From positions 1 through 5,989 of the forward strand of contig CAZNIQ010000030.1 of assembly GCA_964573185.1 (NCBI GenBank): DNA of 5,989 nt, written 5' to 3'. Position numbers and translations under genes: made by a program. The DNA comes from Candidatus Woesearchaeota archaeon (GTDB taxonomy: Archaea > Nanobdellota > Nanobdellia > Nanobdellales > CAZNIQ01). This document shows, in pieces, positions 3,024-4,806 of the stretch. Positions within the stretch are counted from its first letter, which is position 1; each line of letters starts with the position of its first letter. Under the pieces are notes generated by a model, which searched no databases, was not told the DNA's origin, and was given only the letters and a program-made list of their open reading frames with translations.

Positions 3024-3335
3024 TTATAAGGAGACTTCTATTTGTTCTTTTACTTCCTGGGTTGGTTCCCAGACCTTTAATTCTTCTACTCTCGCTTTTA
3101 AGGGTCTGTCGTTATCGTCTAATTCTATTACAACTTTTCCTGTAATCAATTTTCCTGTCCCAATTTTATCTTCAATTGCATATCCTAACCTCTGTACTAA
3201 TCTAGAGAATTCCCTCCTCCATCTTTCTAATACAGCTCTATCCTTTGCAGCCATTGCTCCCCATAGATACCTTACAAAGCTAATTCCAACAGGGTTTACT
3301 GGTCTTACAATTTCTATTTCAATTGTCTTGGTCAT
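3024..3335 (-). CDS. Hypothetical protein (103 aa), predicted beta-alpha-beta3 pattern with a Trp/Arg-rich helix (YLWGAMAAKDRAVLERWRREFSRLVQRLGY)
   Basis: Clean ATG-to-stop ORF with non-low-complexity, globular-looking sequence. A TATA-like octamer sits about 25 nt upstream of the ATG. I recognise no family from memory. Confidence 0.7.
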   Translation of the reverse strand: MTKTIEIEIVRPVNPVGISFVRYLWGAMAAKDRAVLERWRREFSRLVQRLGYAIEDKIGTGKLITGKVVIELDDNDRPLKARVEELKVWEPTQEVKEQIEVSL

Positions 3336-3356
3336 AAATTTATTTTTATTTTGGAC

Positions 3357-3364
3357 TATAAAAA
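3357..3364 (-). promoter_or_regulatory. TATA-like box (TTTTTATA on the minus strand) for the 103-aa ORF, implying a leaderless or near-leaderless mRNA
   Basis: The octamer centre is about 25 nt upstream of the ATG at 3335. Caveat: TATA-like words are easy to find in AT-rich spacers. Confidence 0.4.
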
Positions 3365-3367
3365 TTT

Positions 3368-3419
3368 TGGTGATGAAGGATAGCGGTACTGAACATGATG
3401 AAGTGTTACTCTACTGATC
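3368..3419 (+). ncRNA. Box C/D sRNA (2'-O-methylation guide) with complete C, D', C' and D boxes and two 12-nt guides
   Basis: Read directly from the sequence. C box GUGAUGA is at 3370-3376. Guide 1 AGGAUAGCGGUA is at 3377-3388. D' box CUGA is at 3389-3392. A short spacer follows, then C' box (A)UGAUGA at 3395-3401. Guide 2 AGUGUUACUCUA is at 3402-3413. D box CUGA is at 3414-3417. The total core of about 48 nt and the exact 12-nt spacers are the hallmark archaeal architecture. A TATA-like TTTATTTTTA at 3339-3348 is centred about 26 nt upstream of the C box. Confidence 0.85.
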
Positions 3420-4806
3420 AGATTATTATGCTTAATCTTTTCAATTCAAGATATAACTCTTTTAGAAACTCTTCTAATTTTTCTTTTGGAATAGAAGCTC
3501 CTGCAGCAATATCATGACCGCCACCAACACCCCCCACTTTCAATGCTGCTTTTTCTACAGCCTTTCCTAAATCGCTATCATTTTTATTTACTAATCTTAT
3601 AGAAATCTTTATCGTTCCATCTTCATCTGCAGCAACACCTATAATTCTTTTATCTTTAATCCTAAATGATAGTATAGAAGCAACAGGACTAGTTAAAGTG
3701 GGTCTCAAATTTTTTTCAAAATAAAAAATTAAAATATCCTTATAAACTATTTTCTTAACATTTTCAATATTTTCAAGAGCTTTTAAAATTTCTTTTTTAT
3801 ATTCTAATAAGATATCCAGAGCTTGATCCTTATACTTTTCATCTCCAAGAACAGACGCAATACCAACTGATGGTTTACCCATACGTCCGGTTGCATTTAA
3901 AATATAAGCTATTTCCCTCAGATCTTTAAAGAAAGGATGACTAGAATTCTTTAATAAATAGATATATCCAATAACGTCTTCAGCATTTGGAATATTATAC
4001 TTCATTCTTTTCAGTATAATTGCAGTTATTAGCTTCTTTATCTGTTCTTCATTGAGATCAGAATACTTTATCCAATCCCCTCCTTTTTTCAAAGGAATTC
4101 CTATTTCTTGTAAAAATTGAAGAGCACCTGTTTCAGAACCAGTAACCTCCGGAATGTATATTTCAGTAGAATATTCTAGAACTTTATGCAAAGGTCTTGT
4201 ATATAACCCAAACATTCTTAATCCCTTTTTAACTTCAATTATTCCATTCTCCTGTAATTCTTCTAAAATTTTTTTGTTTAATCCTCTAAATCCTTTTTTA
4301 TCTTCTTGTATATCTCCTATAGCACCAACTAAAGCTAGCCATCCGTAATCTAAAATCTCGTAACTTAAATTTTTCAATAAAAGATATGTTACGCCAGAAG
4401 AAGAAATTTCTTTTGATCCGTCTATTTTGAATATCCTTGGATTTATTTGGAATATTTTACCTATTTTCTTTTCCTTGGAAACTAATTGATGATGGTCTAT
4501 TATAAATGTAGGTATGTATGAAAAGTACTTTCTTAATTCTTCAATGTATCCGCTACCCATATCTAAAAAAATAAGCATATCTTTTTTTACTGAAAGAATA
4601 TCATCAATAGCTTTCTTATCCAAATAATGAAAGAATTTTAATTGAACGATCTTATCTTGATCATATAAATATTTTAACATCAAAGCTGCAGAAGAGAGAC
4701 CATCCGCATCAATATGAGAAACGATTAATATTCTTTTAGCTAAATCAACATAATGTTGAAATTCTTCTGAAACTTCTCTTAAGTATTCCAAAAAAGCATC
4801 TTCCAT
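3418..4806 (-). CDS. recJ: RecJ-like DHH/DHHA1 phosphoesterase (archaeal RecJ/Cdc45 homologue, GAN-like), 462 aa
   Basis: All DHH-family motifs are intact. They are VSHIDADGLSS (DxD), FLDMGSG, IIDHHQ (DHH codons 4489-4497) and the C-terminal DHHA1 GGGHDIAAGA (His codon 3514-3516). Length and domain order match archaeal GAN/RecJ proteins. Confidence 0.9.
   Translation of the reverse strand: MEDAFLEYLREVSEEFQHYVDLAKRILIVSHIDADGLSSAALMLKYLYDQDKIVQLKFFHYLDKKAIDDILSVKKDMLIFLDMGSGYIEELRKYFSYIPTFIIDHHQLVSKEKKIGKIFQINPRIFKIDGSKEISSSGVTYLLLKNLSYEILDYGWLALVGAIGDIQEDKKGFRGLNKKILEELQENGIIEVKKGLRMFGLYTRPLHKVLEYSTEIYIPEVTGSETGALQFLQEIGIPLKKGGDWIKYSDLNEEQIKKLITAIILKRMKYNIPNAEDVIGYIYLLKNSSHPFFKDLREIAYILNATGRMGKPSVGIASVLGDEKYKDQALDILLEYKKEILKALENIENVKKIVYKDILIFYFEKNLRPTLTSPVASILSFRIKDKRIIGVAADEDGTIKISIRLVNKNDSDLGKAVEKAALKVGGVGGGHDIAAGASIPKEKLEEFLKELYLELKRLSIII

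Follow-up and report, generated by a model that had tools for sequence, protein, structure and literature searches.

A predicted double-guide box C/D sRNA with 16S rRNA targets in a Nanoarchaeales genome

The spacer between recJ and the gene for a 103-aa protein carries on its plus strand what we take, with a probability of about 0.9, to be a canonical archaeal double-guide box C/D sRNA with predicted targets at G29 and G97 of 16S rRNA (N. equitans numbering). The spacer lies in the window, which is the whole stretch of 5989 nt analysed, and the host is a Nanoarchaeales MAG of the same order as Nanoarchaeum (594 kb, 37 contigs, 89% complete). It is alone in its family among the genomes compared, and no cultured or closely related representative of the family was present among the genomes searched. 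The sRNA gene is real but ordinary, with about fifty of its kind in the genome. It contributes a guide that had not been annotated and predicts 16S methylation at two sites; the sRNA repertoire is more telling than the single gene.

Architecture of the unit and the host sRNA repertoire

The unit sits in an 82-nt gap between the stop codon of recJ and the start of the 103-aa gene, both on the minus strand. An earlier note on this DNA had described a complete box C/D unit with perfect boxes and two 12-nt guides, and this was confirmed base by base. All four boxes match the consensus, with terminal C (RUGAUGA) and D (CUGA) boxes together with the internal D'/C' boxes and guides of about 12 nt that mark an archaeal box C/D methylation-guide sRNA. 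The features of the locus are as follows.

3024..3335, minus strand: 103-aa gene, probable NEQ026 orthologue with a ThermoDBP-like predicted fold; divergent neighbour
3339..3344, plus strand: probable sRNA TATA box, TTTATT, 31 nt upstream of box C; assigned from position
3357..3369, minus strand: probable TATA box TTTATA (3362-3357) and BRE-like stretch of the 103-aa gene; assigned from position
3370..3376, plus strand: box C, GUGAUGA; from the base-by-base listing
3377..3388, plus strand: D' guide, 12 nt; core complementary to 16S rRNA 26-34/35; Gm predicted at G29
3389..3392, plus strand: box D', CUGA; read from the sequence
3393-3394, plus strand: linker AC, 2 nt, between D' and C'; read from the sequence
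3395..3401, plus strand: box C', AUGAUGA, 2 nt 3' of box D'; read from the sequence
3402..3413, plus strand: D guide, 12 nt; core complementary to 16S rRNA 95-103; Gm predicted at G97
3414..3417, plus strand: box D, CUGA; directly adjoins the recJ stop codon of the opposite strand
3418-3420, minus strand: recJ stop codon, TGA; adjoins box D
3418..4806, minus strand: recJ, RecJ/DHH-family nuclease gene, 462 aa; convergent neighbour

Three further assemblies of this species have exactly the same 120 nt around the locus (overall identity 99.7-99.9%), showing that the unit is not an assembly artefact. The locus is also contained in SRR7968109 and in assembly ERZ27262635. A strict four-box pattern found 46 loci in the 594-kb host genome (47 matches, one locus being counted twice), whereas the same pattern gave no unit in any of 12 third-order Markov genomes; thus the unit is not a product of chance. 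With a slightly looser four-box pattern, about 53 sRNA units were obtained.

The Rfam scan proposed in the earlier note did return archaeal C/D families, although every score was below the gathering score. The best match over the whole unit was sR5 (RF01304; 28.3 bits, E=0.0014, gathering score 40), and sR1 (RF01152) scored 19.1 bits against a gathering score of 45. Both matched via the box sequences and their spacing, their guides differ from those of the studied sRNA, and membership of either family was rejected on both grounds. The predicted fold of the RNA on its own was weak (z=0.51, no stable fold). Together, the low Rfam scores and the weak fold are what might be expected from a copy that had fallen silent or decayed, or from a pattern arisen by chance. 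However, a weak fold is expected here, since archaeal C/D sRNAs are stabilised by proteins, and terminal stems are missing from the N. equitans sRNAs (PMC3491384) as well as from the studied one. With four perfect boxes out of four, targets for both guides, a TATA box at the modal distance and a chance count of zero, such a reading is extremely improbable, and a functional guide sRNA is strongly preferred.

We then compared repertoires using one identical strict pattern. It detected 41 units in the host, 15 in G027, another genome of the same class, zero to seven in the 19 genomes of a third family and five in N. equitans, a figure that undercounts the latter, as 26 box C/D sRNAs were found there by RNA-seq (PMC3491384). 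A fair statement is that the host has about twice the sRNA count of N. equitans, with more uniform boxes. Some 50 near-perfect C/D genes in 594 kb suggest a strongly heat-adapted symbiont in which rRNA methylation was kept or expanded despite genome reduction. The sRNAs of N. equitans (PMC3491384), which belongs to the same order, share with the studied one the compact C-D'-C'-D layout with guides of about 12 nt, the absence of a terminal stem and genes wedged against or overlapping protein genes; they differ in number (26 compared with 46-53 units), and none with G29/G97 guides was found among them.

Two further loci were observed in the host genome. At G000:C1:14077-14172, two sRNA genes lie tail to tail with zero gap, and their D boxes form a palindrome. 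At G000:C4:8446-8505, a GC-rich 56-nt hairpin with a 7-bp GC closing stem and a T-loop-like word stands in AT-rich intergenic DNA; it received no ARAGORN call and may be half of a tRNA or a small RNA of another kind.

Predicted targets on 16S rRNA

In archaeal C/D sRNPs, L7Ae binds the kink-turn and the k-loop, followed by Nop5 and fibrillarin, each guide pairs with pre-16S rRNA, and methylation falls on the target nucleotide that faces the fifth guide position upstream of box D or D'. Genes for all three proteins are encoded by the host (fibrillarin, E=3.6e-93; Nop5, E=1.4e-64; L7Ae, E=6.3e-31). Position -5 is a C in both guides of the studied sRNA and a G is therefore targeted in each case, as the earlier note had calculated. 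Because no 16S or 23S rRNA was found in the host assembly by Rfam 16S and 23S searches and blastn, the targets were placed by the N+5 rule on the rRNAs of relatives from other families. One of these relatives (G002) is N. equitans itself, the start of its 16S being equal to the N. equitans row of the alignment in PMC4644070 and its sRNA coordinates matching the published NeqsR02, 10 and 11. Another relative, G016, holds a second, divergent 16S (G016:C35:2284-3762; L004) that is unlike Nanoarchaeales 16S and probably mis-binned.

The D' guide forms 10 Watson-Crick pairs at 16S nt 26-35 in G004, G009 and G015, and nine plus one G-U pair in N. equitans, with G29 as the predicted site; in our own alignment this nucleotide falls in helix 3 at about E. 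coli G35. The D guide forms nine pairs at nt 95-103, with G97 (column 101 of the alignment in PMC4644070; E. coli G117) as the predicted site, and the target word is present in 12 of the 14 same-order 16S sequences. Both sites were the best over 16S and 23S in the relatives. On the relatives' 16S, each guide thus has at least nine contiguous pairs with a Watson-Crick pair at N+5 (9-10 bp for G29 and 9 bp for G97). The 12-nt targets of the earlier note named the correct G, but overstated the complementarity: the outer one or two guide positions are unpaired in the relatives' 16S and the core is 9-10 nt rather than the full 12. Its suggestion that SSU rRNA is a likely substrate of the D guide gains support from the 9 bp at G97 in Nanoarchaeales 16S, and the D' target, which it had left unplaced, is 16S G29, 68 nt upstream of the D-guide site. 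With both predicted targets in one rRNA and 68 nt apart (N. equitans numbering), the pair fits the double-guide definition of PMC4644070, which asks for two targets in the same rRNA no more than 100 nt apart.

To judge these matches, we used shuffled guides. Shuffled single guides reached 9 bp in 0.7-3.8% of trials (four genomes), whereas shuffled guide pairs with both sites within 100 nt were obtained in none of 3000 trials in each of the four genomes. For all 108 host guides, 31 matches of at least 9 bp were found on N. equitans rRNA, compared with a shuffled mean of 7.5 and a maximum of 12. Other classes of target were rejected: at most 6-7 bp were formed with the host's own tRNA genes and 5S, and the best 23S site of the D guide in the relatives had 6-8 bp.

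Two further host sRNAs overlap the same 16S words, one on contig C22 with predicted target C28 and one on contig C13 with predicted target A102, suggesting that both words are present in the host's own 16S. The C22 sRNA (G000:C22:6474-6522, minus strand; L061) has nearly the same D' guide, moved by one base so that it addresses 16S C28, and its D guide matches 16S G473. At a distance of 30 nt a third sRNA runs divergently from it, and fibrillarin is encoded about 560 nt from the C22 sRNA.

The D guide is the weaker of the two, and nine pairs is also the lower bound used in PMC4644070. The predicted duplex energy is -13.9 kcal/mol for the D guide compared with -16.7 to -18.7 kcal/mol for the D' guide, and 16S G101 (the G97 column) is absent from the target table of 489 sRNAs from seven archaea (PMC4644070 supplement), in which 16S G29 occurs once (T. 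tenax) and C28 twice. Given the unassembled host rRNA, the sRNA could be real with only the D' guide methylating (at G29), the 9-bp D guide helping binding or folding or having a better site in the host's own 23S or 16S. We consider this quite unlikely, since no position in 16S or 23S of the same-order genomes suits the D guide better than G97, which is also within 100 nt of the other target; moreover, the D guide of an independent four-box sRNA in G027 points to this G, with 11 matching letters.

Methylation by both guides is preferred, and the following course of events would apply. The sRNA would be transcribed on the plus strand from its own TATA box (3339-3344) and its transcript trimmed to about 52-58 nt. 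L7Ae would bind at the C/D kink-turn and the C'/D' k-loop, and Nop5-fibrillarin would be recruited. Pairing of the D' guide with pre-16S rRNA nt 26-35 would lead to 2'-O-methylation of G29, and pairing of the D guide with nt 95-103 to that of G97. It is plausible that binding at two sites 68 nt apart may aid folding of the nascent 5' domain at high temperature.

Related guides in other archaea

The closest known likeness to the D' guide is in sR4/sR104 of Thermoproteus tenax (PMC4644070), with which it shares the core GAUAGCGGU and the predicted target 16S G29. The T. tenax sRNA differs in that its D guide has no predicted target and its boxes are degenerate; the shared core of 9 nt is too short to tell ancestry from convergence. 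Guides for the adjacent C28 are found in Methanopyrus sR31, Ignicoccus sR92, the host C22 sRNA and the sRNAs of G015 and G018. They address the same helix-3 hotspot, a named site of concentrated methylation (PMC7994747), and carry the same core word as the studied D' guide, but with the register shifted by one nucleotide and other second guides as partners. In the G015 and G018 sRNAs, the C28 guide is in the D position and has another partner.

A pattern containing both guides found nothing in the GTDB collection, and the exact unit was found once in the JGI metagenomes, in the same species. The D guide is present in one of 400 other genomes of the class. Among the genomes searched, none outside the host species has both guides in one RNA. 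Matches in G021, G039 and G040 lack the boxes and were dismissed as chance. Roughly half of the sRNAs in archaea are double guides whose two targets lie no more than 100 nt apart, and exact sites and guide pairs turn over (PMC4644070; PMC6009581). The absence elsewhere of the G29 plus G97 pair fits this known shuffling of guides around conserved hotspots.

Gene neighbourhood and promoters

On the recJ side, box D (3414-3417) directly abuts the recJ stop codon (3418-3420), just as the earlier note had it. On the other side, the TTTATA at 3362-3357 precedes by 27 nt the start codon (ATG) of the 103-aa gene, which we take as leaderless, and covers the expected sRNA start. Genome-wide, TATA peaks were found at -31 to -28 from box C for sRNA genes and at -30 to -27 from the ATG for protein genes, the latter indicating that host mRNAs are mostly leaderless. 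From their positions, the promoters of the sRNA and the 103-aa gene appear to be interlocked, each lying over the other's expected start. The overlap between the sRNA promoter region and the divergent TATA box pointed out in the earlier note is hence correct as geometry (TTTATT at 3339-3344; TTTATA at 3362-3357). recJ and the 103-aa gene each have a TATA-like element of their own. A scan of the locus for bacterial promoters and terminators found nothing, its models being bacterial and not apt for archaea.

The earlier note was also right that no oligo-T run follows recJ before that TATA box: the first T run after the stop codon is a T5 at 3364-3360, which is part of the TATA-like element of the 103-aa gene. 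Read-through from recJ, producing RNA antisense to the sRNA, is therefore possible. In Pyrobaculum, sRNAs antisense to gene 3' ends have been described, and antisense reads at sRNA loci amount to 9.3% on average in P. calidifontis (PMC6009581). These antisense reads, the absence of a T run from the end of recJ to the following TATA box and the complete overlap of the two promoters would be in keeping with a unit that, besides guiding, regulates its neighbours, either because antisense read-through from recJ titrates the sRNA or because the interlocked sRNA and 103-aa promoters compete. However, the same layouts recur at many unrelated host genes, which points to genome compaction. A convergent ORF ends within 8 nt of 10 of the 53 host sRNAs (six exactly; ORF calls were crude), a divergent start codon lies 26-41 nt upstream of 16 of the 53, and the commonest spacing of divergent protein gene pairs is 30-39 nt (18 of 98). 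Nor is the arrangement kept in relatives: no sRNA follows recJ in 19 same-order loci (one of which ends at a contig end, and N. equitans is not among them), and none is within 1.5 kb of the 103-aa orthologues, all of these relatives being from other families. Regulation of the neighbours is thus unlikely, and we read the layout as compaction and sRNA mobility, not as a regulatory device. More generally, divergent genes in the host are typically 26-41 nt apart, so that each TATA box covers the start site of the opposite gene.

The 103-aa protein shares 82% identity with a 102-aa N. equitans protein whose gene is at 25.2 kb, two genes beyond a dehydrogenase-like one. These features fit NEQ026, of which it is probably the orthologue. 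NEQ026 (102 aa) has no known function and is among the six most abundant proteins of N. equitans (PMC3491384, PMC3149612). Of the 20 same-order genomes, 16 contain the gene, some of them together with paralogues; G027 has it as well. Searches of Pfam and of PDB sequences found nothing, and Foldseek gave no match at E<=0.001. For the confident AlphaFold model (pLDDT 93.7), the nearest structures were HutP and three members of the ThermoDBP family (Z 6.6-7.2, rmsd 3.1-5.1 A, 84-97 residues aligned), and the Atlas likewise points to a ThermoDBP-like fold; with Z under 8, this predicted fold is only a lead. Such a ThermoDBP/HutP-like nucleic-acid-binding fold would argue against the amino-acid-uptake guess made for NEQ026 (PMC3491384).

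In a further reading, the sRNA would be coupled to its neighbours, being co-regulated with the 103-aa gene through the interlocked promoters or served by the 103-aa protein acting on C/D sRNPs, with recJ read-through tuning it by antisense pairing. We regard such coupling as very unlikely. As ThermoDBP-RPs bind C/D sRNAs non-specifically in vitro (PMC4041433), the proximity of the two genes does not argue for a link between the sRNA and the 103-aa protein.

Two other features were seen in the surroundings of these genes. In genus g2 of the third family, a conserved four-box sRNA lies about 2.4 kb upstream of the recJ stop (L084-L096); its D' guide is AT-rich and variable, its D guide is conserved, and it is unrelated to the studied sRNA. 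In the host, RtcB (window:2-157; L071:4633-7512) is split by an intein with a LAGLIDADG domain and is 959 aa long in the longer assembly.
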